The position numbers and the translations under genes were made by a program. 42,237 nucleotides of DNA from positions 1 through 42,237 of the forward strand of contig JAZSBJ010000039.1 in assembly GCA_045602305.1 (NCBI GenBank), read 5' to 3'. Source of the DNA: Eubacteriales bacterium. GTDB lineage: Bacteria; Bacillota; Clostridia; Oscillospirales; CAG-272. Position 1 is the stretch's first letter; the number at the start of each line of letters is the position of its first letter. Below the pieces are notes generated by a model, which was given only the letters and a program-made list of their open reading frames with translations, was not told the DNA's origin and made no database searches. This document shows, piece by piece, positions 10,524 to 37,083 of the stretch.

Positions 10524-11585
10524 TTACCAACTTTTAAGAGGTGTAAATGCAGGATTGGGAACCGCAACCTCAATCTCTGCGCTTGCCACACTAAGCGGAA
10601 AGGGGTTCTCGTTTATGCTACGTGCTACAGTGACAGACGCTTTTTCGTCTAAAACAAACGCTTTTTCGATCGCCTTCTCCAAGCGTATTGCAAGCACATC
10701 GCAAAGTGCCATTTCTTCACAGCAATCTGCCATTTCCGGAAAACGGTTTTCCGAAAATCCAAAACTCTTTTCTGCTCGGTTTTTATCTTTTCCCAAAACT
10801 GCAACCTTAAAGAAATCAACGTTGAATAGGAAAGAAACACGAATGTTTTCTATGTTCGAGGACCTGTCTGCCACCTCATAGCGCTCCTTAAAGCAACCAA
10901 AGAGCCAATCGGCAATCTTATCCGTTAGCGGGCTTTGCGAAAAAAGTGCGGCACGCTCATCCATTCGAGCAAGGAACGCCGCTTTATAGCTTTCAATTTC
11001 ATCCATCGCTTGCTTTTCTTTTTTTCGAAACTCACTTTCGATCATATGACGCTTTTCTTCATACTTTTCCTCACATTCACGCAAAATTCCGTGAAGACGC
11101 TTGGTTAAACGCTTGTCAAGCCAGCTGTGAACGAGCAAAAACACAGGATATCCGATTGGACAAAGAATAATTGCATAAGTATATGCAACGATAGGACGAA
11201 GAAGCAACATAATGATTGGGAAACTAACGGCACCGCCAAGAGCACAGCTTAAGGCGCCGGAAACGCCCTTGTCGTTGCCAAAGACAGCCAACTGTTCCCA
11301 CAAGCCGAAAAATCCAATGATGGCACCAATAACAATCCCCACCGGGATCATCCAAAGCACCGAACTCTTTAATTTGAAAAAGCCAACAGCTCGAATATAT
11401 CCTCGAAAACTCCTTTCACATTCCAAAGAAAAAGCACCGACTGCCTTTTCTCTTGCTTCTTTTTCACCCTTTTTCTCTGCCTTTTTTTGAAGCTCTCCTA
11501 TTTTGTGGTTTGTTTTCTCCAAAGCGTCGTTGATTTCTTGTTCCTTTTGCTCCGCAAAATTTTGCGGAAATTCTGTAAAATCCAT
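10524..11585 (-). CDS. Hypothetical membrane protein: N-terminal K/E-rich helix, about 4 TM segments, soluble C-terminal domain
   Basis: The ORF is open to 11597 (GTG), but the ATG at 11585 has the better AAAGGTGA ribosome-binding site. The gene is visibly AT-richer than its neighbours. I recognise no family motif. Confidence 0.6.
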   Translation of the reverse strand: MDFTEFPQNFAEQKEQEINDALEKTNHKIGELQKKAEKKGEKEAREKAVGAFSLECERSFRGYIRAVGFFKLKSSVLWMIPVGIVIGAIIGFFGLWEQLAVFGNDKGVSGALSCALGGAVSFPIIMLLLRPIVAYTYAIILCPIGYPVFLLVHSWLDKRLTKRLHGILRECEEKYEEKRHMIESEFRKKEKQAMDEIESYKAAFLARMDERAALFSQSPLTDKIADWLFGCFKERYEVADRSSNIENIRVSFLFNVDFFKVAVLGKDKNRAEKSFGFSENRFPEMADCCEEMALCDVLAIRLEKAIEKAFVLDEKASVTVARSINENPFPLSVASAEIEVAVPNPAFTPLKSW

Positions 11586-11706
11586 AAGATTGATCACCTT
11601 TCGCTATTTTTACTTCTGTTTTGGAATTAATTTTATTATAATTCTGTTTTGGAATTTTGTCAAGTCCTTTTCGGGATATAATTCTAAAAAAGGATAAAGG
11701 GTGGCG

Positions 11707-12056: not shown

Positions 12057-12237
12057 TTTTGCTACAGCTCTGTTTTTAGGCAAAAGGGCTAGGCGGATTT
12101 TGAGCAGAATTTTTCGTTCTCGAGCGTGAGGCGTATATGCATACGTCGAGCGATGAGAACGAAAAAAGCAAACAAAAATTAAATTCCAATGGAGAAAACC
12201 GCAAGGTTTTCAACCTTAGACAATGCAAGAAATATAA

Positions 12238-12313
12238 AAGGCGAGAGATGAACTCTCGCCTTTGTTTTGAAAAATATTTTTTGTTTGCGGTTATGCCAAA
12301 ATGCGTCAGCGCC
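12238..12313. repeat. Copy 2 of the ~75-nt imperfect direct repeat. Its hairpin (12238-12263) doubles as the terminator of the five-gene operon.
   Basis: AAGGCGAGAG (12238-12247), loop ATGAA, CTCTCGCCTT (12253-12262). On the minus strand it is followed by TTTTATATTT, immediately 3' of the stop codon at 12314-12316. Confidence 0.7.
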
Positions 12314-15300
12314 TTAGTCCTCGGGGAAGAGGAACTGGAGCGTCAGGTTGCGGCTGTTGGGCCACAGCTGAACGCTTCTGTCAAGGAGCTTGTTGGCTTG
12401 CTTGTTCTTTCCGTCCTTGTTTACAAGGGCGCGAGCCTTTTCCTTGACGGCGTGGATACCGCCATCCGTCCAAAGATAACGGACGACCATATCGTACACG
12501 TTCTTATCCGCGCAACGGAATACCGCACAGGGCGCCGCCTTTTCAAAGGGACGCTCGCTGACTGCCTTAGCAAAGACCTTGGCAATCTGCTCCTCGTTGT
12601 ACGAGGTGAGATATCCGCCGTGGAAGCGGCAGTATTCGTGCTTGGTGGCACGGAATTCCTCAAGATCTCCAAAGAGCTCGGGGTCGGGCTCACGGACTGC
12701 CTTATCCTCGCCAAGCATATTCTCCTTGGCGGTGACGCAGAAGTAGCCGTAGCCGACGACGTTCTGATCGGCGTCACCTCTCTTGGTGTTCGAGGGATCG
12801 CCCCAAGTCACGTCGAGATAGTAGCAATACTTGCCGAGCTTAACGACGTTCCAAGCGTGCGTCTTGCTGACGACCTGACCGCAACAGATACCGACCGACT
12901 GCAAGAGGTACTGTGTCGCAACCGCATAACCGACGCATACGACCTTGTGGTCGACGAGCGCGCTATGCAAGGAGCGAAGCGTATCCTCTTCGCGCACATT
13001 CTGCCCTGCACCGCTGTCAAGACCGACACCGTCGTAGTCGAGGTTGAGGATCAAGCGGCGGTAGATGGTGAGCATCGCTTCGTAGGGATCCGTCTTTCTC
13101 GTGATGCCCTTGGTAAAGAACTTAACGTGGGCGCGAAGCTCTTTTCTGTGCTTCTGCACACGCGCAACGTCCACCTTACCGTCGGCACCGAGGCAACGGA
13201 AGCAGAGCGACAGGCTCTTGACCTTATCGCCCACGTGGCTGTAACGGAAGGTTTCCGTCCAGAAGAATTCGGGATAATCGTAAAGCACGAAGTAGAAGAT
13301 ACGGCGCACGGTCGCAAGCGGCATATCGTAGCACGGAATGGGCTCGTCGCTAAAGTCGGAGATGTGGCGCGCGATCTCGTTGTAAAGACGGATCTGAGGA
13401 TTTCTATCCTCTTCCGCCTCGTGCGGGATCAGCTCGCTTCCCGTCTTGAGCTTTGCGAGCTTGCCGTTCTTCTCGGCTTCGGGCTCCTTCGGTCTTTGCA
13501 TTCCGTCGGAAGCAGAGGAAGTATCGCCCTCGTCGGCACCTGCGTCGGCATCGCCCTCGTCGGGTGTGGTATCTCTTCCGTCGTTGCTATCGTCGTCGCT
13601 GGCGTGCTTGCCGCGCAGATAACGCTTCCAGAAGCGCGGTACGCGGTCGGGATCGTAGAGGGCATCGAGTCCCTCGTTGCCCGATTCGTCATCGTCGCCG
13701 GGGGTGGGAAGGATCTCTTCGGGACCGTCGGGAATGGCGTTTTCCACCACGAAGTCGAAGGAATTTCTGCCCGCATTGTCTGCGATATACTGCTTGATCT
13801 GTTCCACGAGAGGCAACCAGCTATCGGCGATCGCCGCACGGGTAAATTCCGCGCGCTCTGCGGCACCGATGCTGTCGAGGTAGCAAAGCTCCTCGTAGTA
13901 GAGCTGGGCGACTGCGGCAGTCGTGACACAGTTTTCATCTCTGTGCCATACCGAAAGGAGACCGCGCAACACCGCGACAAACATACAGTCACGCGGCAGG
14001 TCGCACTCGACCTCTACGCGGCGATCGGCATACGAGAGGCGGTAGAAATACTCGCTGAGCTCTTGTCCCTCTTCGAGCGAGAAGGGATCTGCGAGCGCAA
14101 AGCCCACGTTCTTCGGAAGCTCTCGGTCGGGGTACTTCTCTGCCCAATAGCTCTTGACCTCGTCGACCATACGGGAGAGGTCCTTATCCTCGCTGACCGC
14201 TTCGACCTGACAGTCAAAGCAGATGTATCTGTGCTCGTCGTAGATCGCATAGCGTCCCGTAACGAGAGGACGCTTACAGAAGGAGCAGTGCGTGGGCTTT
14301 TGCACCTCTTCCTCTTCCTTATCCTCACCGATCTTGCGCTCACAGTTGGCAAGAAGTGCAAGGCTTCCGTCGAGGTCGTATACCGAGGGCAGAGTGTCCG
14401 CGCCAAAGTAGATGTAATGTGCGTCCCCTGCGGGAAGCGTGGGATGCTCCTTGAGCCACTTGAGGTAGTCGAAGATGTAGGAGAACAGCTCCTCCATAAT
14501 GCGCGCACCGCCGTCGTACAGACGGTCGAGAATGCCCACATCCTCATCCGCGTCGTTCACGATGAGGAACTCTGCGACCTTCTCATCCTTTGCGGCGGGG
14601 CTATCTACGATATAGGGGTACAGCGTTTCAACGCATCCCTCGTAGCTCTCGTTGACCGACGCCTTCTCGGTGGGAGAAAGCAGAACGGGACAAACCGCAA
14701 CGCAACGGTAGGTTTCGGGGAACATCGTGCGAAGGAACTCGTTGAGCACGGCAGCAAGGAGCTTTCTCGTGCCGTCCGAGCATTTCTCGCGCGATACGAG
14801 GCGCACCGTGAGGATCTTTCCTGCCGAGAGGCGTCTTGCCTGCTCGTTCACCGTACGCTCGTCGAGATTCGGGTTACCGCCGACGCCTTCCTTAAAGTTG
14901 AGCGTCTGGCTGTTTGCCATCAAGCGATAGAAGCCGTAGGTTTCGCCAAGGATCTCCGCCTTTTCGTATCCGACGTCGATCTCCGCCAGCGTACCCGTGC
15001 TATAGTGATGCACACCGTGAAGCGCGCCCGTATCGGCACGGTCCTTCATCGTGTAGCGGCGAAGGAATGCCGTATCAAGGCAGGAGTTGTTGGTGATGTT
15101 TTCCTGACGCAGGTAAATGGTGCGGCGGTCGGGCGAAATCTTATCGATTTCATACTCGTGGTTGTCAAAAATGATGTACTGACCGGGCAAATACTGCTGA
15201 TATACACGGTCGGGGAAGGTATCGAGCGAGCCGATAACGGTACCGTGGAGCGAAAGCTCGACACGGGTATTGTTGGAGAGCAGCTTCTCGAACACCTCTT

Positions 15301-17770
15301 CAATGCGCAGGAAGGAAACGTGCAGCTCGGTATGAAGCTCGTAGCCGTCCTTGCGCTCGGGCTGAATGATGCTGTAGAAGTTGTATACGGGCTTCTTGGC
15401 GACGGTGTATTCTACTACCTTGCCGCCACTCTTGCTTTCGCGCTTCTCTGCGATCATCTTGGGATCGGACATCAGCTCGGAGAGCAAGAACGCCACGCGG
15501 GCATTGAGGTCGTACGCGGGCTTTGCACCCTTTTCCTTCATCGCGGCGTCAATGCGCTCGGAGAAGCGGGAAATTGGCATACCCGACGCGCTTGCCGTTG
15601 CCTCGCAAAGCAGGCGCAGAAGCAGAATCTTATCGGTGTCCGCGTGCTCGGTCGCACGGGGCTTGATGAGGTCGGACTGGTTGACGTACATTTCCACGCG
15701 GTCGCCGAAATACTCACGGAGCAGATACGGGCGGCTGAGAATGTGCAGAATGGACGCTTCTCTGCCGTGGAAACGGGTGTACGCATAGATGGCGGCGGCA
15801 AGGTTGCAACGGTCATCGGTGCAGATCATATAGTTGACGTTCGGCACCTGCTTGTGGAAGAGGTTGATCTCCACGTCGTGCGCCTTGAAGTTCTGCTTTT
15901 CCGCAGGGCTAAGCGGAACGCTCGTCAGAATACGAATGCCGTCCACGCGCGCCCCGTACGCCGCCTCGGCGATGAGGGACTCGATGGTCGTTTCGCTTTG
16001 ACCGTCCTTGTTGTAGAGGACGTTGCTCTCACGGTTCCAAAGCATATAGGAAACGTGCTCGTTTTCCTCTGCACTGTTGCAATCCACGATCTCCTCGTCA
16101 ATGCAGAAGAACTTGCGAAGGCTTGCGGAGAAGCCCTGAAGCACGTCGCGCGAGAGGAACATAAAGCGGATCTTTCCATCCGTCGCCTCTTGCAAGCGGC
16201 ACGCCATAATGGTGCAAAGGTAGCTGTTGAGGTTGAGGATCTTGTCGGCGTCCACGAAAACGGCGTTGCAGGCTTCCTCAAAGAAATAAGGATAGTTTTC
16301 GACAAGGTTGTCGGTTGCAAAGTCCTCGGGTACACCGACGAGGACGTCTGCCTCGTTGATGTGATGGGAGTCTGCACTGTAAACGCGCCAGGTTTCCTCG
16401 CGCGTGACACCCGTGATCTCGGTCAAGCGGTTACCGATGTATTGCTGAAGACCGACCACCTTGCTTCTGTCGGAAACGATAAAGATGATTCTCTGTCCCG
16501 AAAGAAGTCGCATATAGGTATAGGAGATGATATACTCGCCCAGCTGAGAATAGAAGGAAGAACCGAAATACACGTGTCGCTCGTTGAACACCGCGTCAAG
16601 ACCACTCATATAGTTTTGAATGACCTTGCCGTAGTTGTTCTTCATATACGAGCTGATATACCCCAGCGCGTCCTTGTAGATCTCGTTGGTACAGAGATAC
16701 TCAGCCACCTCTTTGGACTCGGTGGCGGGGAAATAGCGAATGCTGTGGTTCTTGGCAAAGCGGCGCAGAATGTCGCAACGCAGCTTGTCAAGACCAATCT
16801 TCTTTTTCTCTTTTTCTTCCTTTTCCTCGATCTTGATCTTACGCTTGGTTTCCACGGGGGGCTTGCAGGGCGCACGGAAGGTGTTGCAAAGCTCTTGCAA
16901 GAGGATAATGGAAACAAAAGGATAGATGTACATCTTCGCCGTTACCCAGTTGAGAATGGTGTAAACGATCTCGGGCAGGGGGAAGAATACGGCGAGAAGC
17001 AGAAGGAAGAACAAAACGGCGTACAGCGCTTCTACAACGTAGATGAAGAACTGCACGACCGCCGTTGCGGCGTGCACGAAGCGGCGCGCGTGCTTGAAAT
17101 CGGGGGCTTCAAAGAAAAGACCCCAAAAACCCATATAAATACGGTAAAGGAAGGGATGGTCCTTACGGAACTTCTCGTCCTCGGCGTGCGTCTTGCGCTC
17201 GGCAAGCGCCTTTTCTTCCTCGTCGGCGGCAGACTTTTCTTCCTCGTCATCCGTCTTCTTGCGGCGTGCGCGGAAGAAGACCGAGATGCGGCGGGGCTTT
17301 TTCTTGGTTTCGCCTTCGTCGCCCGTGGCAGCGTCCTCGCCGTCCGTCTTTTTCTTCTTTTTAGACTTCTTCTTTTTCTTGCGGAAGCCAAAGATAACAC
17401 CGAGCGCACCCTTTACAAACGCCTTTAAGAACAGAAGCAAATAAAGCGTCACGAGGTTCAAAAGCAGAACCTTAAAGAGCACCGAGCTTCCAAAGGTGAG
17501 AGAGGCGGATGCTCGCGAGAGCAGCTTTGCGATAAAGGGCACGGATGCAATCGCATTTGCCACCGAGAAGATGGCGCCGTATACCACGGCGAGCGCCACG
17601 AACTCAAGAACCGTCAAAAGAACGAAAAATGCGTTCAGTCGGTTGTTGGGCGCGTCATAGCGAAGTCCGTAGAAGGTGGAGAAGCGTCTTAACTTCTTGG
17701 GAAGCGGGAGAAGCGGGAGAAAGAGGAGCAATACCGAACAAATGATAATAAGGATCTTTACAGCTGTCAT
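12314..17770 (-). CDS. Giant (1,818 aa) polytopic membrane protein. Contains a degenerate SF2-helicase-like module, a CxxC...CxxC zinc ribbon, an acidic linker and a C-terminal transglutaminase-like cysteine protease core.
   Basis: - N-terminal ~310 aa has several TM helices split by a K-rich then D/E-rich loop (RKKKKKSKKKKKTDGEDAATGDEGE...).
- Helicase-like blocks: RIIFIVSDRSKV (Ia-like), VLVGVPEDF (Ib-like), AVFVDADKIL (DEAD-like), FMFLSRD (III-like), YMICTDDRCNLAAAI (V-like), FHGRE (VI-like). No GxGKT Walker A is present anywhere.
- Zinc ribbon HCSFCKRP...YICFDCQ at nt 14207-14290.
- TGase core VVCVGYAV...THAWNVV...YYLDVTWGD.
- The ATG lies 5 nt after the upstream stop. Confidence 0.9.
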   Translation of the reverse strand: MTAVKILIIICSVLLLFLPLLPLPKKLRRFSTFYGLRYDAPNNRLNAFFVLLTVLEFVALAVVYGAIFSVANAIASVPFIAKLLSRASASLTFGSSVLFKVLLLNLVTLYLLLFLKAFVKGALGVIFGFRKKKKKSKKKKKTDGEDAATGDEGETKKKPRRISVFFRARRKKTDDEEEKSAADEEEKALAERKTHAEDEKFRKDHPFLYRIYMGFWGLFFEAPDFKHARRFVHAATAVVQFFIYVVEALYAVLFFLLLLAVFFPLPEIVYTILNWVTAKMYIYPFVSIILLQELCNTFRAPCKPPVETKRKIKIEEKEEKEKKKIGLDKLRCDILRRFAKNHSIRYFPATESKEVAEYLCTNEIYKDALGYISSYMKNNYGKVIQNYMSGLDAVFNERHVYFGSSFYSQLGEYIISYTYMRLLSGQRIIFIVSDRSKVVGLQQYIGNRLTEITGVTREETWRVYSADSHHINEADVLVGVPEDFATDNLVENYPYFFEEACNAVFVDADKILNLNSYLCTIMACRLQEATDGKIRFMFLSRDVLQGFSASLRKFFCIDEEIVDCNSAEENEHVSYMLWNRESNVLYNKDGQSETTIESLIAEAAYGARVDGIRILTSVPLSPAEKQNFKAHDVEINLFHKQVPNVNYMICTDDRCNLAAAIYAYTRFHGREASILHILSRPYLLREYFGDRVEMYVNQSDLIKPRATEHADTDKILLLRLLCEATASASGMPISRFSERIDAAMKEKGAKPAYDLNARVAFLLSELMSDPKMIAEKRESKSGGKVVEYTVAKKPVYNFYSIIQPERKDGYELHTELHVSFLRIEEVFEKLLSNNTRVELSLHGTVIGSLDTFPDRVYQQYLPGQYIIFDNHEYEIDKISPDRRTIYLRQENITNNSCLDTAFLRRYTMKDRADTGALHGVHHYSTGTLAEIDVGYEKAEILGETYGFYRLMANSQTLNFKEGVGGNPNLDERTVNEQARRLSAGKILTVRLVSREKCSDGTRKLLAAVLNEFLRTMFPETYRCVAVCPVLLSPTEKASVNESYEGCVETLYPYIVDSPAAKDEKVAEFLIVNDADEDVGILDRLYDGGARIMEELFSYIFDYLKWLKEHPTLPAGDAHYIYFGADTLPSVYDLDGSLALLANCERKIGEDKEEEEVQKPTHCSFCKRPLVTGRYAIYDEHRYICFDCQVEAVSEDKDLSRMVDEVKSYWAEKYPDRELPKNVGFALADPFSLEEGQELSEYFYRLSYADRRVEVECDLPRDCMFVAVLRGLLSVWHRDENCVTTAAVAQLYYEELCYLDSIGAAERAEFTRAAIADSWLPLVEQIKQYIADNAGRNSFDFVVENAIPDGPEEILPTPGDDDESGNEGLDALYDPDRVPRFWKRYLRGKHASDDDSNDGRDTTPDEGDADAGADEGDTSSASDGMQRPKEPEAEKNGKLAKLKTGSELIPHEAEEDRNPQIRLYNEIARHISDFSDEPIPCYDMPLATVRRIFYFVLYDYPEFFWTETFRYSHVGDKVKSLSLCFRCLGADGKVDVARVQKHRKELRAHVKFFTKGITRKTDPYEAMLTIYRRLILNLDYDGVGLDSGAGQNVREEDTLRSLHSALVDHKVVCVGYAVATQYLLQSVGICCGQVVSKTHAWNVVKLGKYCYYLDVTWGDPSNTKRGDADQNVVGYGYFCVTAKENMLGEDKAVREPDPELFGDLEEFRATKHEYCRFHGGYLTSYNEEQIAKVFAKAVSERPFEKAAPCAVFRCADKNVYDMVVRYLWTDGGIHAVKEKARALVNKDGKNKQANKLLDRSVQLWPNSRNLTLQFLFPED
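12812..12937 (-). other. Predicted transglutaminase-like catalytic triad (Cys 12935-12937, His 12857-12859, Asp 12812-12814)
   Basis: Codons were located by hand: TGC in D-H-K-V-V-C-V-G-Y, CAC in T-H-A-W-N, GAC in Y-L-D-V-T-W. The spacing (C, 26 aa, H, 15 aa, D) and context (G-x-C-x-G-[FY]-A ... H-A-W ... D) fit the transglutaminase-core superfamily. Confidence 0.75.
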
Positions 17771-19896: not shown

Positions 19897-22800
19897 TTAT
19901 TCTTCGGAAGCGGGTGCCTCAGCCACAGGTGCTGCGGGAGCAACGGGGGCTACGGGAGCTTCCTTCTTGGGGGTATCTAAGCCGCGGCTCTTGCGGACGT
20001 TGCCCACGCAACGGTCCATACGTTCGGCTTGGAATGCATTGAAGTCGAAGGCTCTCTTTGCCCACTTGCCCTTGCCGGGCTCTGCGGAAGGAACGATCTC
20101 CATAAAGCAGCCTGCACGGTTTGCAAAGTTGAACATCATCTTTGCGGTATCGAGTGCGGTTGCCTCGGGAATGTCCTCGTCGCAGAACATTTCAGCAACG
20201 AAGTAGTCAAGCTCCCACATATAAACCTCGGCAAAGAGGTCGTCGGACGAGCTGACAACACGCTCACAGAGATCCCAAAGGAGATCGCTGACGACAGCGA
20301 GGATCTTCTCGGCGTCGTTGCAGTCGTAGCCGCCGCGGCTCTCCTCCTCAACCTTGATGGCGTATGCGAACTCGAATACGCTCTTGTTGAGCTTCTTTTG
20401 GAGAACCGTCTTTGCGGAAGAGCCTGCCGATGCGTTGGCAAGCATCGTTTCGAAGATGTTTCTTCTGAGCATCGAGAGATACTTGGTGGTGGTCAGCTTT
20501 GCCTTTGCGGCAGGGATCTCGTGTGCAAAGCCCGTCTTGGGAAGCACGGAGAGCTGATCCTCGACGTTGCGGTCGAACTCAGCGCACCACTTCTCGATCT
20601 TATCCTCTTGAGGACGGAGCCAAGCGATCAGTCCGATGAGGTTGTTCTCGTCGACAAACTTGCCGTCGCCAACGATCTTCTCGCCCGCATAGCGGAACGC
20701 CTTGTCGGAGTACTCGGCGCTGTAGGACACCTCGCCGTTCATAATCGCATAAAGGAGCGCCTTAAAGAGCTTCTTATCTGCCTCAGCCTCGAGATCGGGG
20801 TTGATGAAGGGCAGGTAGCCGCGCTTGTGCCAGTTGAAGCCAAGGTGGGGGAACATACTGTCGTTCTTCTGATCCTCACCGATCTTAACTGCCTCAAGGT
20901 AACGCTTGTAGTAGCCGTCTTCTCCGCTCTTCTCGTTCACCTTAACGATATCCACCGAGTTAACGCTCATAAGCGCGCGGCAGATAAAGATGGTATTCTG
21001 GGGAACGGTGTCCTCGATACGAACGAAGGATTCGGGGCAGAATCTCGTAACGAGGTCGTCGGTGCAAGCCGCACTCGGTGCAATGCCGAAGCGGTCGGTG
21101 TTCTTTTGGAGATAATCCTCTACCTTCTTGGGAGCGAGCACGACGCCCTGCGTCTTGTGCATACCGCCCGACTTGACCTGAAGGGCAGGCTTCGCCATTT
21201 CGAAGGCGGTGAGGATCGCTGCCTTTGCGGCGTCGTATTCCTTGCCGCGGTTCTCCTCGGCAAGCACCTCGAATACGTTTCTTCCGCAGAGGGAGATGCA
21301 GTAATCGCTCTTCTTGATCTGCTCGAGGTTGGACTTCTTCATCGTGTCGAAGACGGCAGTCGCGTCAACGCGATCCTCTTCTTCCATCGTGCCCTTCTTC
21401 GCGCAGGACATCTTATAGGCGATCTCGAACACGCCTGCACCTGCAATCGAGATGCCCTCGCGCTCGTCTGCCATATTGTCTTCCATCAAAAGCTCGTAGT
21501 GACGGCGGCGCTGTTCTACGGATGCACCGACGTATACGCAAGAGGTGTCGGCACCCTTTGCCTTATCCTCTTCGGCTCTCTTGACCTTATCCTTAAGGCG
21601 ATCCTTCTGCTCTGCAAAGCGGCCGAAGAATGCGCGGTAGCTCTCGATCATCGCGTCGATACGGCTCTTGAGCGTTTCGATGGTCTTGCGAATGATCATC
21701 TCGCCTGCATCCTTCATCAGGGTGGTGAGGAGCATATCGCCGTCCTTCTTGAGTGCTTCGCTATCTACGGAGTAGTCGGTCTTCTGTGCCTTGAAGCCCT
21801 CGGCAAAGGAAGAATCAAGCATCGTGGAGAAGCGCGAGCTTTCGCCCTTCAAGTATGCACTCTTTGCGGCGCGGCTTCCAAGGTCGAGCGTGTCGATGTC
21901 GGCGCACTCAAGGAAGTCGTGAGGAAGATTGCCGATCTCATAGGAGCCGACGTCCTTCCACTCCTTGCCCTCAAGGGCGGCACCCTCTGCCTCAAGAAGC
22001 AGACGGAAGGAGCAAAGCTGAAGCATTGCGGCAACGGGATGGATGTAGTAGCCGTCCTTTGCGAGAACGTTCTCAACAAAGGAGAGCTTGCGGTTTGCGG
22101 TGGGATCCTTCTTGGGATCCATAGGAAGGATAGCGTCTGCTACGACGTTGAGCTGACTGTTGATCTCGTCGACTGCCAGCTTGTAGTATGCGTTGAGCGC
22201 CTTATCGTAGATCTCGTTTGCGATCTCCACGACCTGACCTGCCTTGCTTTCCTTTTCGCCCTTACCTGCGAAAAGACCTGCCGCGGGAATGACGTCGATG
22301 TCGCTGATGACGTCGATGTACTTCTTATTTTCGGGCGCAAGTGCCTTGAGGGCTTCCTTGGTCGCCTTCCAATATTCGCCGAGAATGTCGAGCGTGACAA
22401 ACTCGTCACCCTTTTGTACCGTGGGCTTCACGGCGTTCTTGAGCATCTCGGTGATGTTGCAGGTGGGCGTGCGTGCCTCTGCCTCTTGTGCGTCGGTGTA
22501 GAGCTTTGCGTAATCCTTTACCGTCAGGTGATACTCCTTACGCATCTCCTTTGCCTTTTGACGCTTCTCTGCGATCTGCGTTTCGGTTGCGGTGTGCAGA
22601 ACGAGCCAAGCACCCTCGGCATCGGACTGCGTCTTACGCCAAGCAAAGTACTCCAGCATCTCGTCGATGGGGTAGTGGATCTCGGAAGAGCCGATGCCCG
22701 CGAACATACAGTTGTGTCCCGTTTCGTTGGCACGCTTCTTTTCCTCGTTGGACCAGATGGAGTCAAGCTCGCCGCCTGCCTTGGTACAGATGAGGGAGTA

Positions 22801-23688
22801 AAGGGTGTTTGCAAGTGCCTCGTCGTGCGCGATGATGGAAGAAACGTTGACGATCTTCTCCATCATACAAACGCGCTCGAAGGGAGCCGCCTCAGGCGTC
22901 CAGAATGCGGGATCCTGAGAATCGAAGAGCACGCCCACGGGGCTATCCTTGGTGCCGATGTGGAAGCGGACGGGAGTACGTCCTGCACGGGCAACCTCGC
23001 CTCTGCCATTGTCGTAGGTAGATGCATTCAGTCCGTATACGACCTGGTTGATGGCGTTCAGCTCGCGAAGGATCGCGTATGCGTTCGCATAGATGCTCGT
23101 GATGTTGGTGCGGTCACCACTCTGTTTGCCCTCGTAGATGTCGGGGCAAGCGAGAAGGGCGCGCGCGTGGATGGTGGTCTTCTCACCGAACTTCTCACGG
23201 ATGAGCTTCTTGACGTAGAGCGTCAGAGGAATAAAGCTACCCGAGCCCGTGCCGCCTGCAAGAGAGGCAACGGTGTAGATGTCGATGTCGATCGAGGGGT
23301 TGGTCTTGTCGGCAAGTCTTTCGATCGCCTGCTCAAGAACGGTTCTCTGTCTTCCGTTCATTGCATTGAGGAAGGCAAGATAGGACTGTTTTCTCCACTG
23401 ACCTGCACCGATCGAGATGTTGTTGCTGTCAAAAATGGAGTCTGCGGGGAAGAAATCGCCCCAAACGGATTCGCCAAGGCGCTCCTTGACCGTTTTTACG
23501 GTCACGTTATCCGAGAGAGAAACGATGGTTGCGGCATCGATGTTCTTTTCGTCAGCCATATTGGTATCGAGCACGATGGAAACGATGTTGACATCGCCCT
23601 GCTTACCCATCTTGTCGATCTTCTTTTGCAGCATATTTGCCGCACGGCTGCCGGTACCACCGACGCCAAGGATGAGGACACTCTTCAT
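19897..23688 (-). CDS. Giant tubulin/FtsZ-superfamily GTPase-like protein, paralog B (1,263 aa)
   Basis: - N-terminus MKSVLILGVGGTGSRA resembles the FtsZ T1 loop GVGGGGxN.
- ASLAGGTGSGS at aa 141-151 contains AGGTGSG, which matches the PROSITE tubulin signature [SAG]-G-G-T-G-[SA]-G.
- About 900 further residues have no motif I recognise.
- Pro/Ala/Glu-rich C-terminal tail ...KKEAPVAPVAPAAPVAEAPASEE.
- AAGGAGA ribosome-binding site. Confidence 0.85.
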   Translation of the reverse strand: MKSVLILGVGGTGSRAANMLQKKIDKMGKQGDVNIVSIVLDTNMADEKNIDAATIVSLSDNVTVKTVKERLGESVWGDFFPADSIFDSNNISIGAGQWRKQSYLAFLNAMNGRQRTVLEQAIERLADKTNPSIDIDIYTVASLAGGTGSGSFIPLTLYVKKLIREKFGEKTTIHARALLACPDIYEGKQSGDRTNITSIYANAYAILRELNAINQVVYGLNASTYDNGRGEVARAGRTPVRFHIGTKDSPVGVLFDSQDPAFWTPEAAPFERVCMMEKIVNVSSIIAHDEALANTLYSLICTKAGGELDSIWSNEEKKRANETGHNCMFAGIGSSEIHYPIDEMLEYFAWRKTQSDAEGAWLVLHTATETQIAEKRQKAKEMRKEYHLTVKDYAKLYTDAQEAEARTPTCNITEMLKNAVKPTVQKGDEFVTLDILGEYWKATKEALKALAPENKKYIDVISDIDVIPAAGLFAGKGEKESKAGQVVEIANEIYDKALNAYYKLAVDEINSQLNVVADAILPMDPKKDPTANRKLSFVENVLAKDGYYIHPVAAMLQLCSFRLLLEAEGAALEGKEWKDVGSYEIGNLPHDFLECADIDTLDLGSRAAKSAYLKGESSRFSTMLDSSFAEGFKAQKTDYSVDSEALKKDGDMLLTTLMKDAGEMIIRKTIETLKSRIDAMIESYRAFFGRFAEQKDRLKDKVKRAEEDKAKGADTSCVYVGASVEQRRRHYELLMEDNMADEREGISIAGAGVFEIAYKMSCAKKGTMEEEDRVDATAVFDTMKKSNLEQIKKSDYCISLCGRNVFEVLAEENRGKEYDAAKAAILTAFEMAKPALQVKSGGMHKTQGVVLAPKKVEDYLQKNTDRFGIAPSAACTDDLVTRFCPESFVRIEDTVPQNTIFICRALMSVNSVDIVKVNEKSGEDGYYKRYLEAVKIGEDQKNDSMFPHLGFNWHKRGYLPFINPDLEAEADKKLFKALLYAIMNGEVSYSAEYSDKAFRYAGEKIVGDGKFVDENNLIGLIAWLRPQEDKIEKWCAEFDRNVEDQLSVLPKTGFAHEIPAAKAKLTTTKYLSMLRRNIFETMLANASAGSSAKTVLQKKLNKSVFEFAYAIKVEEESRGGYDCNDAEKILAVVSDLLWDLCERVVSSSDDLFAEVYMWELDYFVAEMFCDEDIPEATALDTAKMMFNFANRAGCFMEIVPSAEPGKGKWAKRAFDFNAFQAERMDRCVGNVRKSRGLDTPKKEAPVAPVAPAAPVAEAPASEE
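23239..23259 (-). other. Tubulin/FtsZ G-box (T4 loop) signature AGGTGSG in paralog B
   Basis: Codons mapped by hand: gca ggc ggc acg ggc tcg ggt on the minus strand. Confidence 0.85.
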
Positions 23689-23768
23689 TTTTGTTCTCCT
23701 TGTTTCTTTGTTTATTTATTTTTGTTTTTTTAAATAATGAAGACTTTGAAAACTTGAAATCGGGAAAA

Positions 23769-26700
23769 TTATGCGTTTGCCTGTTCCTCATCCGATACGA
23801 TGGGAGCCGCCTTTTGGGGCTCTCCCTCGCTCTTGGCGCGGTTTTTGGCTACGCGATCCAAGGACGAGATTCGCTCGTTAAGAAATTCGGAGAGATTGAA
23901 ATCTCTCTTTTCCCACTTTTGACTGGGATCTCGGCTGGGGACGATCTCCATAAAGCTGCCCGCGCGGTTGGCAAAGTGCAAGAGCGCCTTGACAACGGCG
24001 ATGCGGTCGGCTTCATCCTCAGGCATATCGTCGTCCATATACATCTCCGCAACGAAATAGTCAAGCTCCCACTCGTAAACTTCCTTGAATTGGTCCTTGT
24101 CGCTGCTGATGACACGCTCACACAGCTCCCAAAGGAGATCGCTGACGACCGTGAGGATCTTTTCGCCGTCGTTACAGTCGTAGCCGTAATGACCCTCTTC
24201 CTCGGTCTTGATGCGATATGCAAATTCAAAGATGTTCATATCGAGCTTCTTCTTGATCTTTGCATACTTCTTCTCGTCCTCGGGGCGCAGAGCTTCCTTG
24301 CCCGTCGTCTTGAAGAGGTTTTCAAAGATGTTTCTGCGAAGCATCTTAAGATACTTGGTCTGCGTCAGAGCCGTCTTTGCTCTGCCGATCTGATGCACGA
24401 ATCCTGCGGACGGAAGCGATGCAAGCTGCTCCTCAACGTCGCGGTCGAACGCTTCGCTCCACTGCTCGATCTTATCGTCCTGCGGACGGAGCCAAGCGAT
24501 GAGTCCGACGAGGTTGTTGTCGTCCACGAACTTACCGTCGCCCACGATCTTCTCGCCGTCGTAACGGAAGGCAAGGTCGCCGTATTCCTTCTTGAAGGAA
24601 AGCTCGCCGTTCAAGAGAGCGTAAAGCAGTGCCTTGATCATCTTCTTGTCGGCGGCAATCTCAAGCTCGGAATTGATGTAGGGAAGGTATCCGCGCTTAT
24701 GCCAGTTGAAGCCAAGGTGCGGCAGCTTGCTGTCGTCGGTGTAGCCCGAGCCGTCACCGCACTTGGAGTAGTCGGAACCTGCCATACGAACGGTATCAAG
24801 ATAATACTTGTAATAGCCGTCCTCAAGGTTGCTTTCGTTGACCTTGATGATGTCGATGGAGTCAACGCTCATCAAAGCGCGGCAGACGTAAATGGTGTTT
24901 CCGGGAATGCCCGCTTCCAAGCGCACGAGGGCGTTTTGGCACCATTTGCCGATGAGGTCGTCTGCACAAGCACGCGCGTCGCCGCCACCGATGGAAATAT
25001 CAAAGGTGGAGCTGTTGGCTTCGAGATACTCCTCGAGCTTTTCGGGAACGAGAACGACTGCCTGTTCCTTCTGCATACCCGTTTCCTTAACGCGTAGCGC
25101 AGGCTTTGCCATTTCGTATGCGATGGAGATGATCTTGCGACCGACCTCGCTCTCCGCACCCGTGTTTTCGTCCGCGATCACCTCAAGGACGTTCTTTGCG
25201 GCGATCTCTTGATAATAATCGGAGCGCTTGATGGCTGCCTTGTTGGCGTCGTACATTGCGGAGAAGACACCCGTTGCGTCGATCTTGATGTCGTCCTCTG
25301 CCTTAAAGCGCTTGGCGCACGCCATACCGTAGGTGATGGTAAAGACGCCCTGCCCTGCAATGCCGTTGTCTGCGGCACCCGACATCATATCGCCAACGAG
25401 GCGCTCATAATGCTTTCTGCGGCTCTCAACCGAGGCGCCGACGTAAATGCAAGAGGTTTCCGAGGAGCGCGAGCGCTCAAGCTCTGCTCTCTTGACGCGG
25501 TCTGCAAGACGCGTCTTTTGCTCGGTGAAGCGACGGAAGAAGGAGCGATAGGACTCGATGAGCGCATTTGCGCGGTCCGCGACTGCCGTAAGCACGCGGC
25601 GCAGAAGAAGCATCGTCGCCTGATTCTTGAGCGAGGTCAAAAGCAGGTCGCCGTCCTTGATGATCGCCTTATTGTCCGTTTCGTAATCCGTTCTTTCCTT
25701 GGCGTACGCAACTCTGCCCGCTTCGGTGAGAAGCTCGACGAAGCGTGCCTTTTCCTTTTTGAGGTAGGCGCTTCTCGATGCTCTTGCACCAAGGTCGAGC
25801 ACGCTCGTATCGTCGGTGCAGTCGAGAATTTGGAAGGGCAAGGAGCCGATCTCAAAGGAAGAAAGGTCGGGCCACTCGATGCTGTCCATTCTTCCCAGCT
25901 CGTCCTCGATCGCCAAGCGGAGCTTACAAAGCTGCATCATTGCCGCGACGGGGTGGATGTGCACGCCGCCACGCAGAAGCACGTTGTTCACAAAGGAAAG
26001 CGAAAGGTTTGCCGTGGGATCCTTTTTAAGATCGAGGGGCAAGACCGCGTCGGCGCAAACGCCCGACTGACTGCGGATCGCCTCAACCGCTTTTCTGTAA
26101 TAATCGTTTAAGTAATCGTAAACCTCTTCCGCATTGTTGCAGACCTGCTGTGCGGCGGTTTCCTTGGCACCCTTTGAGGAGAAGAGGACGGGGTTCTTTA
26201 CGGGATTGATGTCCGACGCGATCTGTGCGGCGATGTCGCTGTGATCGGGCACGAGCGCTTCCAGCGCCAGCTTTAAGCGCTTAAAGTATTCGTCAAAGAC
26301 GAATTTTTGCTCTTCCTTGCCGTCGCGGCGCTCGTAATACCTCGTCGCGGCGCGGATGATCTCGGTGATGTTGCCCGTTTCGGTGCGCTCTTCGGCGCGC
26401 TGCGCCTCGAGGAAGAGCTTGGCGTACTCCTCGGTGGTGAGGTGGTATTCCTTACGCATCTCCTTGGCGAGCTTGCGCTTTTCGGTGATCTGCGACTCGG
26501 TGGCGTTGTAAAGGGAAAGCCATTCGCCCTCTACGTCGTCACGCGTTTTGCGCCACGCGAAATATTCAAGAAGCGTATCAATCGGATATTGGATCTCAGA
26601 AGAGCCTATGCCGGCGTACATACAATTATGTCCCGTTTCGCCTGCACGCTTCTTTTCCTCGTTGGACCAAATGCCGTCAAGCTCTCCGCCGGCTCTCGTG

Positions 26701-27599
26701 CAGATAAGCGAATAAAGAATGTTCGCCATCGCCTCGTCGTGTGCGGCGACCGAGGAAACGTTGATAATCTTCTCCATCAAGCACACACGCTCAAAGGGTG
26801 CGGCGGTGGGAGAATGATATTTTTTGTTTTTGGAATCGAACAGAACGCCGACAGGGCTCTCCTCACTTCCAAGACGGAAGTTGACGGGGGTTCTTCCGCG
26901 GCGTGCGCTTTCGCCCTTACCGCTGTCGTACTCCTCGCCGTTGAGTCCGTATACGACCTGGTTGATACCGTTCAGCTCACGCAGAATGGCATATGCATTT
27001 GCGTAAATGCTCGTGATATTCATACGGTCGCCGTTCTGCTTTGCCTCGTAAATATCGGGGCACGCAAGCATTGCTCTTGCTCTGACAGTCGCATTGGGGA
27101 ACATCTGACGCAGTCTTTTCTTGACGTACAGCGTCAGGGGAATAAAGCTACCCGAGCCCGTGCCACCCGCAAGGGAAGCAACGGTGTAAATGTCGATCGA
27201 GAAGGTCGCCTGCGTTTGGTCAACGAGCTTCTGCAAGGCGCTGTCGAGGTCGTTGCGGCGAATGGTGTCGTTCATCGCGTTGAGAAATGCGAGATACGAC
27301 TGCTTGCGCCACTGCCCTGCACCGATGGAAAGATTGTTCTCGTCGTACTTATGGTCCTTCGGGAACCACTCGTTGCATTGCGCACCGAGGCGATTGCGGA
27401 CCATACCTACCGTTGCATTCTCCGAAAGAGAGATGACGGATGCCGAGTCGATATTCTTTTCATCCGCGGCGTTGGTATCAAAGACGACGGAAACGATCTT
27501 GACGTCTTCCGTCTGCCCTGCGCGGGTGATCTTCTTTTGCAAGAGGTTAACTGCTCGGCTGCCGGTTCCGCCGACGCCGAGAATAAGAACGCTCTTCAT
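23769..27599 (-). CDS. Giant tubulin/FtsZ-superfamily GTPase-like protein, paralog A (1,276 aa)
   Basis: Same N-terminal GVGGTGSR and ASLAGGTGSGSFIPLTLYVKK blocks as paralog B. It is collinear with B over the full length, roughly two-thirds identical by eye in the first ~400 aa, with many synonymous differences at the DNA level. Acidic tail ...KAAPIVSDEEQANA. AAGGAGA ribosome-binding site. Confidence 0.85.
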   Translation of the reverse strand: MKSVLILGVGGTGSRAVNLLQKKITRAGQTEDVKIVSVVFDTNAADEKNIDSASVISLSENATVGMVRNRLGAQCNEWFPKDHKYDENNLSIGAGQWRKQSYLAFLNAMNDTIRRNDLDSALQKLVDQTQATFSIDIYTVASLAGGTGSGSFIPLTLYVKKRLRQMFPNATVRARAMLACPDIYEAKQNGDRMNITSIYANAYAILRELNGINQVVYGLNGEEYDSGKGESARRGRTPVNFRLGSEESPVGVLFDSKNKKYHSPTAAPFERVCLMEKIINVSSVAAHDEAMANILYSLICTRAGGELDGIWSNEEKKRAGETGHNCMYAGIGSSEIQYPIDTLLEYFAWRKTRDDVEGEWLSLYNATESQITEKRKLAKEMRKEYHLTTEEYAKLFLEAQRAEERTETGNITEIIRAATRYYERRDGKEEQKFVFDEYFKRLKLALEALVPDHSDIAAQIASDINPVKNPVLFSSKGAKETAAQQVCNNAEEVYDYLNDYYRKAVEAIRSQSGVCADAVLPLDLKKDPTANLSLSFVNNVLLRGGVHIHPVAAMMQLCKLRLAIEDELGRMDSIEWPDLSSFEIGSLPFQILDCTDDTSVLDLGARASRSAYLKKEKARFVELLTEAGRVAYAKERTDYETDNKAIIKDGDLLLTSLKNQATMLLLRRVLTAVADRANALIESYRSFFRRFTEQKTRLADRVKRAELERSRSSETSCIYVGASVESRRKHYERLVGDMMSGAADNGIAGQGVFTITYGMACAKRFKAEDDIKIDATGVFSAMYDANKAAIKRSDYYQEIAAKNVLEVIADENTGAESEVGRKIISIAYEMAKPALRVKETGMQKEQAVVLVPEKLEEYLEANSSTFDISIGGGDARACADDLIGKWCQNALVRLEAGIPGNTIYVCRALMSVDSIDIIKVNESNLEDGYYKYYLDTVRMAGSDYSKCGDGSGYTDDSKLPHLGFNWHKRGYLPYINSELEIAADKKMIKALLYALLNGELSFKKEYGDLAFRYDGEKIVGDGKFVDDNNLVGLIAWLRPQDDKIEQWSEAFDRDVEEQLASLPSAGFVHQIGRAKTALTQTKYLKMLRRNIFENLFKTTGKEALRPEDEKKYAKIKKKLDMNIFEFAYRIKTEEEGHYGYDCNDGEKILTVVSDLLWELCERVISSDKDQFKEVYEWELDYFVAEMYMDDDMPEDEADRIAVVKALLHFANRAGSFMEIVPSRDPSQKWEKRDFNLSEFLNERISSLDRVAKNRAKSEGEPQKAAPIVSDEEQANA
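27150..27170 (-). other. Tubulin/FtsZ G-box signature AGGTGSG in paralog A
   Basis: Codons mapped by hand: gcg ggt ggc acg ggc tcg ggt on the minus strand. Confidence 0.85.
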
Positions 27600-30800: not shown

Positions 30801-30829
30801 ATTATACAAATATTCTCGAGCAAATGCAA
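30801..30829 (-). promoter_or_regulatory. Candidate promoter of the five-gene operon (-35 TTGCAT, 17-nt spacer, -10 TATAAT)
   Basis: On the minus strand, TATAAT is at 30806-30801 and TTGCAT at 30829-30824. The -35 is weak, matching the consensus at 3 of 6 positions. Confidence 0.45.
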
Positions 30830-30978
30830 CACTTTTCGCAAGATTTTCATTATTTTTGTCAATTTGTCGAAATATTTGTTCATATCTTGTGCGTTTTGCC
30901 TACATTCTGCCTTGAATTATCTTCCTTCATTTCCGTTTTTTGTAAGCATTGCATTACATTTCCGGCAAAAACAAAAAA

Positions 30979-31008
30979 AGACCGAATTTTTCGTTTCGGT
31001 CTTTTTTG
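30979..31008. terminator. Bidirectional terminator after metA, insulating it from the downstream operon
   Basis: GACCGAA (30980-30986), an 8-nt loop, TTCGGTC (30995-31001), flanked by an A7 run and a T6 run. Confidence 0.8.
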
Positions 31009-34497: not shown

Positions 34498-35033
34498 TTA
34501 TTCTTCGTAATTGTAGCCCGTTTCGATCGCCTTGAGGTTGATCTCAAGAAGATCGGCGTGCTTTGCCGATACGACCTTGGAAAGCGCATCGCGGATGCCT
34601 TCATAGGACACCATACCCGTTTCGCGGATGAGCTTGCCCACCATAATCATATTGGCGAGCGTGGGGAAGCCTGCCTCCTTGGCAAGGCGGGTCGCGGGAA
34701 TGTAGAACGCATCCACATCCGCTCTCTTTACCTTGCGCTCAATGAGGGTGGAATCCACAAAGATCTTGCCGCCCGCGACGGTTGCGTCCTCGTACTTGTC
34801 GAGCGAGGGCAGGTTCATTACCATCAAAACGTCGGGGTTGGACACGATGGGAGAGCCGACGGGCTCGTCACTGATGATGACCGAGCAGTTTGCCGTACCG
34901 CCGCGCATTTCGGGACCGTAAGAGGGGAGCCAGCTTAACTGCTTGCCCTCAAGGAGCCCCTTATATGCGAGAAACTTGCCTGCGAACAGAACGCCCTGTC
35001 CGCCAAAGCCTGCAATCAAAAGGTTGGTCGTTT

Positions 35034-35037
<4 letters not shown>
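34498..35037 (-). CDS. 2-oxoacid:ferredoxin oxidoreductase, gamma subunit
   Basis: 179 aa. [14 protein letters not shown]...[14 protein letters not shown] is the conserved gamma-subunit signature. Its start overlaps the beta subunit stop (ATGA). Confidence 0.9.
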
Positions 35038-35789
<752 letters not shown>

Positions 35790-35792
35790 TGC

Positions 35793-36848
35793 TTATTCTC
35801 CTTTCACCATCGCCACGATCTTGGCATAGACCTCTTCGGGCGTGGGGATCATACCGCCTGCGCGGTTGCAAAGGTAGACGGGTCTTGCACAGCGAATGGC
35901 AAGCTCGATGTCCTCGATCATCTGACCCATCGAAAGCTCAACGGAAAGGAACGCCTTGACCGTCTTTGCCGCCTCGGCAAAGGCGCGCTTCGGGAAGGGC
36001 CAAAGGGTGATGGGGCGGATCATACCGACCTTCATACCGTTTGCACGCGCTTCGTTGACGGCGTTTTTCGCAACGCGGGAAGCGATACCGAAGGCAACGA
36101 CGCAATACTCGGCGTCGTCCATCAAGTAGGACTCGTAGCGTGCCTCGGTTTCTTCGATCTTTGCGTAACGCTCGTAGCGCTTAAAGTTCTCTTCCTCGAG
36201 CTTTTCGGGCTTAAGGAAAAGGGAGTTTACGATGTTGTGCGTTCTCTTGCATTCGGTGCCCGTAAGCGCCCAAGGCTTTTCAAAAGTGCGTGTCTCGCCC
36301 GTAGGAAGCTCTACAGGCTCCATCATCTGACCCATCGTACCGTCGGCAAGGATCATCGAGGTCATACGGTATTCGTCTGCCTTTTCAAAGCCGAGAACGG
36401 TGAGGTCTGCCATCTCCTGCACAGAGGCAGGGGCGTACACGAGCATATGGTAGTCGCCGTGACCGCCACCGCGCGTTGCTTGGAAGTAGTCGGACTGGGA
36501 AGGCTGAATGCCGCCAAGACCGGGGCCGCCGCGCTGTACGTTGACGATGAGGGCGGGCAGGTCTGCGCCTGCAAGATAGGAGAGGCCCTCGCTCTTAAGC
36601 GAGATTCCGGGGCTGGAAGAAGAGGTCATAACGCGAAGGCCTGCGCCCGCAACGCCGTAGACCATATTGATTGCGGAGATCTCGCTCTCCGCTTGGAGAA
36701 ATACGCCGCCGATCTTAGGCATACGCTTTGCCATATACGCGGCAATTTCCGTTTGGGGGGTGATGGGATAGCCGAAATAATGACGGCAGCCCGCAAGGAT
36801 CGCCGCCTCGGCGATTGCCTCGTTACCCTTCATAAGTACCTTAGCCAT
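35793..36848 (-). CDS. 2-oxoacid:ferredoxin oxidoreductase, alpha subunit
   Basis: 351 aa. MKGNEAIAEAAILAGCRHYFGYPITPQTEI is the typical alpha-subunit N-terminus. Confidence 0.9.
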   Translation of the reverse strand: MAKVLMKGNEAIAEAAILAGCRHYFGYPITPQTEIAAYMAKRMPKIGGVFLQAESEISAINMVYGVAGAGLRVMTSSSSPGISLKSEGLSYLAGADLPALIVNVQRGGPGLGGIQPSQSDYFQATRGGGHGDYHMLVYAPASVQEMADLTVLGFEKADEYRMTSMILADGTMGQMMEPVELPTGETRTFEKPWALTGTECKRTHNIVNSLFLKPEKLEEENFKRYERYAKIEETEARYESYLMDDAEYCVVAFGIASRVAKNAVNEARANGMKVGMIRPITLWPFPKRAFAEAAKTVKAFLSVELSMGQMIEDIELAIRCARPVYLCNRAGGMIPTPEEVYAKIVAMVKGE

Positions 36849-36860
36849 TGTCTTACCTCC

Positions 36861-37067: not shown

Positions 37068-37083
37068 TTTAATATCCGTCCTT

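Follow-up and report, generated by a model that had tools for sequence, protein, structure and literature searches.

The FtsZl1 family was defined by Makarova and Koonin in 2010 (PMC2875224) from proteins with a very diverged N-terminal FtsZ-like GTPase domain with a GGGTG(S/T)G loop, followed by an extended coiled coil and then a helical C-terminal region, without recognisable T6-H7 or an FtsZ/tubulin C-domain. The genes are linked in operons to those of vWA and membrane proteins, and a role in membrane remodelling was predicted. In the supplementary table of that study (Additional file 5), a vWA gene, FtsZl1, “B5” (~680 amino acids, aa) and “B12” (>1,400 aa, a membrane protein with a Zn finger) follow in this order in Ruminococcus lactaris (RUMLAC_01529-01526) and “Bacteroides” capillosus (BACCAP_04124-04121), and all FtsZl1 neighbourhoods listed there hold a single FtsZl1 gene, none of them two adjacent ones. 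The correspondence of FtsZl1 to the Pfam family PF13809 (Tubulin_2) is stated in a 2023 phylogeny, in which the group served merely as a divergent outgroup (PMC9871819). Literature searches on FtsZl1, Tubulin_2 and FtsZ-like proteins with vWA partners returned these two works and no experimental study. Here we analyzed a stretch of 42,237 nucleotides (hereafter the window) from an Eubacteriales bacterium (Clostridia; Oscillospirales; CAG-272; assembly GCA_045602305.1, contig JAZSBJ010000039.1), in which an operon of this type carries two FtsZl1 genes in tandem, A (gene 2) and B (gene 3), between a vWA gene (gene 1) and the equivalents of B5 and B12 (genes 4 and 5). The tandem pairing suggests a mixed two-subunit assembly. 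The family and the vWA-FtsZl1-B5-B12 operon type are already known; the systematic tandem pairing, the asymmetry between an intact and a degenerate copy across Clostridia and the substitution, in this lineage, of an intact duplicate for the degenerate copy appear to be unreported.

Two FtsZl1 paralogs with a long extension

Both proteins were scanned against Pfam, where PF13809 scored 126.2 bits for A and 111.4 bits for B (gathering cutoff 27) over residues 5-350 and profile positions 1-349 of 356. Against PF00091, the classical model of the Tubulin/FtsZ GTPase, the match stayed below threshold (aa 4-177), no Pfam domain was called beyond aa 350, neither FtsZ_C nor Tubulin_C being present, and a scan of NCBIfam gave no family matching A or B. 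A and B are members of FtsZl1, with a strongly diverged FtsZ/tubulin-type GTPase domain and a ~900-residue extension. An initial annotation of the window had assigned them to the FtsZ/tubulin superfamily, as the Pfam scores and the structural matches below confirm, and had taken them for an unrecognised class of tubulin, which they are not, the family and its vWA operon having been described in 2010. Besides the T1 and T4 loops (Table 1), a T2-like DT(N/D) motif and a T3 motif (GAG) are readable in the sequence. After a helix at residues 284-300, a conserved D308-x-x-x-S312-N313-x-E315 pattern (with E314 between) could, by its position, be the T7 loop; it lies in a segment (residues ~300-340) modelled with a block predicted local distance difference test (pLDDT) of 49-60. 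The T1, T4 and candidate T7-like motifs of B are identical to those of A.

An AlphaFold2 model of residues 1-430 of A, built from an alignment of 82 sequences, reached a pLDDT of 83, and a Foldseek search with this model returned CetZ, FtsZ, tubulin and BtubAB (5o09) as the best PDB folds, with a probability of 1.0. The model of residues 400-1276 (pLDDT 86) has helices of 44 and 72 residues, a pair of small alpha/beta units and a bundle of helices, and ends in a disordered tail. Searching the PDB by fold with the 877-aa extension gave nothing significant (best E 0.08), nor did a sequence-profile search of the PDB with the FtsZl1 proteins (best E 0.19), and no solved structure was found; the earlier proposal that the extension takes the place of the canonical C-terminal domain is supported, and the extension is thus without a match in Pfam, PDB sequences or PDB folds. 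The module formed by the last ~400 aa was searched for with HMMER through all of 1.84 billion cluster representatives and occurred in only 85 proteins at E <= 0.001, so that the extension appears specific to this subfamily. Most of the carriers are 1,100-1,350 aa long with the module at the same C-terminal position; nearly all remaining ones are shorter (82-985 aa) and are probably fragments or short paralogs, and the matches in two long proteins, P0147 (16 matched stretches) and P0164 (12), seem to be repetitive.

The two genes are adjacent and collinear, as first described: BLASTP aligned the proteins end to end with 57% identity, 73% positives and 39 gap positions. Conservation of the N-terminal ~330 aa had been singled out, and four identical blocks are indeed present there in both proteins, but conservation is not confined to this part: identity is 66-75% over residues 1-400, 39-56% over residues 400-900 and 58-69% over the last ~370 aa. 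Using the Nei-Gojobori method on the aligned pair, we obtained a proportion of synonymous differences (pS) of 0.69, which is saturated, a proportion of nonsynonymous differences (pN) of 0.28 and a ratio of nonsynonymous to synonymous rates (dN/dS) of ~0.19. In all 100-codon blocks pS lay between 0.58 and 0.82, and being uniformly high it leaves no trace of recent gene conversion. Against their orthologs in L001, one of the related loci described below, dN/dS was 0.066 for A and 0.082 for B, the two evolving at near-equal rates. Saturated synonymous sites together with low dN/dS indicate that both copies are old and kept by purifying selection, which bears out the initial view that neither is a recent copy. 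Four loci (L001, L002, L004 and L005) each hold orthologs of both A and B, and the divergent segment at aa 400-900 stays distinct between A and B in the orthologs of each.

Both proteins end in low-complexity tails with the sequences originally quoted, that of A being modelled as disordered. A conserved C-terminal docking peptide was sought across orthologs and none was found, the tails being variable and of low complexity, which removes sequence conservation as a support for the suggestion that they serve as acidic partner-docking elements. In Christensenellaceae-type loci (first FtsZl1 gene of L011, L014, L015, L016, L025 and L050), the long FtsZl1 copy has an acidic tail whose last residues form an AT-hook-like KRGRGRPxKK motif, absent from the window proteins, which might bind DNA or acidic lipids.

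Copy number and copy classes in related loci

A scan of species-representative genomes yielded a total of 69 related loci, nearly all from metagenome-assembled genomes (MAGs) of uncultured Clostridia (Oscillospiraceae, Christensenellaceae, Eubacteriales and others), many of them from gut material (cecum, colon, rectum, rumen, faeces and the like), and the five-gene order was identical wherever contigs were complete. Copy number was counted in the 48 loci with both flanks: 39 hold two FtsZl1 copies, two hold three open reading frames (ORFs; three genes in L006, one split gene in L037) and seven hold one, all seven belonging to a distant clade. We then sorted the copies by length into long (at least 1,170 aa) and short (857-1,166 aa) ones. 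T1, T4 and N313 are all kept in 61 of 67 long copies and in one of 36 short copies, where variants such as GIGQTGC, GGTGSA, GGTSSA and TDYGSG are seen and the D-S-E-x-S-N loop has been lost. In most of the pairs compared, the short copy has a rate of evolution 3-5 times higher; the dN/dS values of short copies, 0.09-0.29, denote purifying selection. At most loci, then, the second copy is the shorter, motif-degenerate one, whereas the window lineage has two intact ones. Where a copy with degenerate motifs and without the loop is nonetheless kept in the operon under constraint, the simplest explanation is that it partners the intact copy; as a GTPase acting by itself it would be difficult to account for.

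To place A and B among these copies, a neighbor-joining (NJ) tree was built, a distance-based method with which long-branch effects on the short copies are possible. The A clade and the B clade were each recovered in 100% of bootstraps and were sisters at 99.5%, so the duplication is lineage-specific; this also led us to reject the idea that B is orthologous to the short, degenerate second copy that is widespread. In L003, where the gene order is A, short copy, B, the short gene in the middle joins A+B at 99%. The A/B duplication predates the split from L001-L005 and L003 and is younger than the operon family, so that the word “anciently” in the earlier description of the pair is to be taken as relative. 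Taken together, the tree and the A-short-B order of L003 indicate that the window lineage re-duplicated the intact copy and is now without the degenerate one. Two three-gene loci, L003 (13861..16713) and L006 (8987..11560), carry a short degenerate copy between two long ones, which points to repeated duplication and loss inside the operon. L001 (SVRR01000006.1) and L004 (SVRR01000024.1) come from the same MAG, SIG648, both in the metA-operon arrangement and with TubA identities to the window of 89% and 79%; this bin probably mixes two related genomes.

Membrane partners and genome setting

The initial annotation expected membrane partners, and the vWA protein, B5 and B12 all carry predicted transmembrane (TM) segments. 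Gene 1 encodes a signal peptide (aa 1-28), an Ig-like ectodomain, one TM helix (~aa 812-840) and a cytoplasmic tail of ~165 aa, with an intact metal ion-dependent adhesion site (MIDAS) motif, D46-N-S48-G-S50 (DNSGS). Pfam gave weak Big_13 and MG2 matches and, at E<=0.01, no vWA domain, so that the vWA assignment rests on the motif, the gene position and the COG2304 label that equivalent genes carry in the 2010 table. Among 57 vWA homologs, 54 have a signal peptide, 55 a DxSxS MIDAS and all a C-terminal TM helix; the tail past the last predicted TM helix measures 159-206 aa in 55 of them, the two exceptions having 120 and 127 aa. The homologs are between 881 and 2,324 aa long in total, the ectodomain being very variable in size and the tail nearly constant (~175 aa). 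The vWA protein is a predicted type I membrane protein of conserved design. Its gene is the fastest-evolving of the operon, in which dN/dS against L001 ranges from 0.07 to 0.20 over all five genes: its own value is 0.20, at 69% identity, compared with 86-89% identity for the other four.

Gene 4 was labelled B5 by comparing gene order and size with the 2010 table, not by sequence comparison, and gene 5 was labelled B12 by its position relative to that table. In the gene 4 protein, a TM hairpin spans aa 479-526 and the N-terminus, MxTYVINTSxNK, is invariant; the protein matched nothing in Pfam or in the PDB, the latter searched with B5 profiles. The gene 5 protein has N-terminal TM helices and a large conserved core, followed by a Cys4 zinc ribbon and, at the C-terminus, a transglutaminase-like domain whose Cys-His-Asp triad is intact; a search of the PDB with the B12 family profile found this last domain only (9crn_A, E 2.9e-40). 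B12 was annotated as a zincin protease in 2010 (PMC2875224), and Pfam scans of 20 homologs did not reproduce this zincin (HExxH) annotation. Compared by table description, genes 4 and 5 fit the R. lactaris-type operon in their sizes and order, in their TM segments and in the Cys4 ribbon. The transglutaminase-like domain forms a separate downstream ORF in L015 (16541..), L022 (15230..), L025 (16500..), L040 (23898..) and L043 (16915..), which makes the C-terminus of gene 5 (window 12314..13400) a detachable module.

The coordinates of all features are collected in Table 1. Each of the five genes is preceded by a Shine-Dalgarno site; A and B are 80 nt apart and the start codon of gene 5 lies 5 nt beyond the stop of gene 4. 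Genes 1-5 are one chromosomal operon, which ends at the hairpin past gene 5. Around it lie metA, a Cys/Met-metabolism pyridoxal phosphate (PLP) enzyme gene, pyruvate:ferredoxin oxidoreductase (POR) genes and sbcCD, and the operon also follows metA in L001-L004 and L006. Codon usage and composition are host-like, and scans of six proteins with the PADLOC-DB and PHROGs HMMs gave no match. From the stable synteny, the host-like codon usage and the absence of PADLOC and PHROG matches, the operon looks vertically inherited and chromosomal rather than mobile, and on the same evidence we rejected an origin in a prophage or defence island.

Table 1. Features of the five-gene FtsZl1 operon, with positions in the window
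Feature	Position	Strand	Remark
Gene 1, vWA protein, 1,005 aa	27670..30687	(-)	ORF
Gene 2, FtsZl1/Tubulin_2 paralog A, 1,276 aa	23769..27599	(-)	ORF
GTPase domain of A, aa 1-350	26550..27599	(-)	
T1 loop GVGGTGS of A	27558..27578	(-)	read from sequence
T4 loop AGGTGSG of A	27150..27170	(-)	read from sequence
Candidate T7-like loop of A, aa 304-325	26625..26690	(-)	secondary-structure order
Helical and alpha/beta extension of A, aa 400-1260			
Disordered C-terminal tail of A	23772..23837	(-)	last 17 residues pLDDT <50
Gene 3, FtsZl1/Tubulin_2 paralog B, 1,263 aa	19897..23688	(-)	ORF
Pro/Ala-rich tail of B, ending SEE	19900..19983	(-)	
Gene 4, “B5” TM-hairpin protein, 663 aa	17776..19767	(-)	ORF
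Gene 5, “B12” membrane protein, 1,818 aa	12314..17770	(-)	ORF
Gene 5 Cys4 zinc ribbon, C1162/C1165/C1184/C1187	14210..14287	(-)	
Gene 5 C-terminal transglutaminase-like domain, C1612/H1638/D1653	~12671..13333	(-)	
Candidate operon promoter (TTGCAT, 17 nt, extended -10 TGTATAAT)	30801..30829	(-)	consensus match only
metA terminator	30972..31007		upstream of candidate operon promoter
Intrinsic terminator-like hairpin (11 bp stem, T-rich tail)	12237..12263	(-)	51 nt past gene 5 stop

Several neighbouring features were recorded along the way. Antisense ORFs of up to 1,763 aa (12137..17428, 20029..23733 and 34890..37154, all on the (+) strand, and others) are not genes: they arise because the sense genes nearly avoid TTA, CTA and TCA (0-6 per gene; GC content at third codon positions, GC3, ~0.7). 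Between the operon terminator and sbcC lies a gene for a 357-aa protein with three TM helices (10524..11597, (-)) and no family match, with a GC3 of 0.41 compared with ~0.70 in its neighbours, in a stretch of GC 0.45 and with a perfect TTGACA-17-TATAAT promoter-like site at 11635..11663; it was probably acquired recently. A small ParA/MinD-like P-loop protein (37084..37740, (-)) and, next to it, an unusual 766-aa fusion of helix-turn-helix, cupin and AMP-binding/acyl-CoA synthetase domains (37753..40053, (-)) are encoded upstream of the POR genes and have no relation to the FtsZl1 pair.

Readings of the pair and likeness to known systems

The reading that we prefer is that A and B together build a GTP-dependent oligomer or filament of mixed composition, located at the membrane on its cytoplasmic side. 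This assembly would dock on the ~175-aa cytoplasmic tail of the vWA protein and/or on B5 and B12, and an exposed, fast-evolving, metal-dependent ligand-binding ectodomain would thereby be coupled to a GTPase scaffold and to a Cys-His-Asp transglutaminase-like enzyme, in envelope or membrane remodelling or in outside-in signalling. In most relatives the second subunit would have turned into a non-catalytic partner, and in the window lineage this role would have been taken by a younger, fully intact duplicate. The heterodimer or heteropolymer that the initial annotation considered gains indirect support from tandem paralogs being the rule in related operons and from a partner copy that is usually degenerate in its motifs and yet under purifying selection. 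Judging from protein and gene sequences, we hold this GTP-dependent, membrane-bound co-assembly coupling the vWA ectodomain to B5 and B12 to be moderately probable. Several observations weigh against it. When the family profile was aligned with hhalign to E. coli FtsZ, the alignment had low probability, ran through T4 only and stopped at residue 162, and the T7 assignment comes solely from the order of secondary-structure elements. Foldseek TM-scores of the 1-430 model to FtsZ and tubulin are low (0.3-0.43), which alongside the probability of 1.0 leaves the fold assignment sound and the domain strongly remodelled. Single-copy operons show that one FtsZl1 can suffice, the identical catalytic motifs of A and B fit redundancy or separate homomers equally well, and we found no cellular function reported for any FtsZl1 member.

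The alternative that survives best is that A and B are subfunctionalised or redundant and form separate homomers, for instance in response to different conditions or with partners of their own, without an obligate heteromer. The identity of T1, T4 and the candidate T7 loop in the two proteins, their near-equal rates, the lineage-specific duplication and the single copy of the distant operons all agree with it. It accounts poorly for the retention of tandem copies in 41 of the 48 loci and for the segment at aa 400-900 (39-56% identity) that is kept distinct in A and B orthologs, and independent homomeric GTPases are a poor fit to a copy that in most loci has lost its GTPase motifs and yet is constrained. 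We regard homomers as rather unlikely on this balance. If the pairing were mere redundancy, the locus would be one more member of a known, uncharacterised operon family.

The operon could instead serve not as a cytoskeleton but as a sensor-effector module for conflict, defence or proteolytic signalling: the exposed vWA/Ig protein would sense a ligand or phage, the FtsZl1 proteins would act as switches that depend on nucleotide or as scaffolds that oligomerise, without dynamic filaments, and the transglutaminase-like domain of B12 would be the effector. Its vWA gene evolves ~3 times faster than its neighbours (dN/dS 0.20 vs 0.07-0.08), the Cys-His-Asp triad is intact and a MoxR-vWA-YebA-like triad is a recognised prokaryotic theme (PMC3495828). 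Elsewhere in the 2010 table (PMC2875224), FtsZl1 stands beside MotA/TolQ/ExbB and OmpA-family genes in Deinococcus and beside a cysteine protease gene in Bacteroides caccae. On the other side, no protein matched PADLOC, no nuclease, toxin or typical abortive-infection effector was detected, and the stable metA-sbcCD position and host-like composition suggest vertical inheritance; a sensor-effector role is, moreover, compatible with hetero-assembly of A and B. The Deinococcus pairing of MotA with OmpA presumably recalls ZorAB of Zorya defence systems. We judge the sensor-effector module to be improbable. The last alternative, in which one of the copies has arisen recently or is a pseudogene in decay (the latter an outcome that the initial annotation had named as refuting its proposal) and the pair has no joint function, has nothing for it beyond the duplication itself and a negligible likelihood, recent duplication, pseudogenisation and gene conversion being excluded by two full-length ORFs, uniformly saturated synonymous sites (pS 0.69), dN/dS below 0.1 against orthologs and the presence of both orthologs in L001, L002, L004 and L005.

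Co-assembly of A and B can be carried further, to a “receptor-to-cytoskeleton” machine of gut Clostridia in which an exported, integrin-like MIDAS/vWA-Ig receptor, its cytoplasmic tail being constant, is coupled to a two-subunit FtsZl1 membrane polymer, an obligate catalytic/non-catalytic heteromer that evolved independently of alpha/beta-tubulin and BtubA/B, with the D-S-E-x-S-N loop as a T7-like activator; in this full form it is a speculation that we doubt even more than the sensor-effector module. FtsZl1 is among the FtsZ/tubulin superfamily's most diverged branches, and the pairing of an intact copy with a degenerate or second intact one raises the questions of whether hetero-oligomeric tubulin-like assemblies had more than one origin and whether the family polymerises. 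With two intact subunits and no third copy, the window lineage offers a clean co-expression system. The architecture of the vWA partner suggests a route that links extracellular binding to a cytoplasmic GTPase scaffold, in hosts that are abundant uncultured gut Clostridia.

Alpha/beta-tubulin and BtubA/BtubB are heterodimers of paralogous tubulin-superfamily GTPases encoded together. The asymmetry of alpha/beta-tubulin has a parallel in many related loci, where the catalytic motifs persist in one copy and are lost from the other; the identical motifs of A and B mean that there is no such catalytic asymmetry in the window. Unlike those heterodimers, the window pair has no Tubulin_C, its similarity stops after T4, it carries an unrelated extension of ~900 aa and it belongs to a membrane operon; an alignable H7/T7 with a catalytic acidic residue was not found, the hhalign and Pfam alignments ending near residue 162-177. 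The FtsZ1/FtsZ2 pairs of plant chloroplasts and of archaea are likewise retained, non-redundant duplicates, of which the chloroplast pair hetero-polymerises. They are canonical FtsZ proteins that have FtsZ_C and serve in division, whereas the window pair is without FtsZ_C and a conserved C-terminal peptide and lies in a non-division operon between metA and sbcCD. DynA/DynB of Streptomyces and DLP1/DLP2 of Campylobacter are adjacent GTPase paralogs of >600 aa with helical stalks that form hetero-oligomers on membranes. They are the nearest functional analogy for a paired giant membrane GTPase, but the fold differs (P-loop vs tubulin/FtsZ Rossmann-like), and no dynamin or bacterial dynamin-like protein (BDLP) structure is among the fold matches listed for either model.

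The MoxR-vWA-YebA triad joins vWA, an NTPase and a transglutaminase-like peptidase in one operon (Zhang & Aravind 2012, PMC3495828). The window operon similarly combines vWA, an NTPase and a membrane-associated transglutaminase-like Cys-His-Asp domain; the MoxR NTPase is of the AAA+ type and its vWA protein is a proposed cytoplasmic co-chaperone, whereas in the window the NTPase is tubulin-like and the vWA protein, with its predicted signal peptide, is exported. The closest likeness is to the 2010 FtsZl1 operon, with which the window shares the Pfam family, the succession of GTPase domain, long helices and helical C-terminus, and the gene order. It differs in the length of its FtsZl1 proteins (~1,270 aa vs 1,136-1,183 aa), in a B12 that has a transglutaminase-like C-terminus and no zincin signal where the 2010 description has a zincin annotation, and above all in copy number: the 2010 neighbourhoods have one FtsZl1 each, whereas the window and 41 of the 48 related loci have two or three in tandem, usually an intact copy and a degenerate one.

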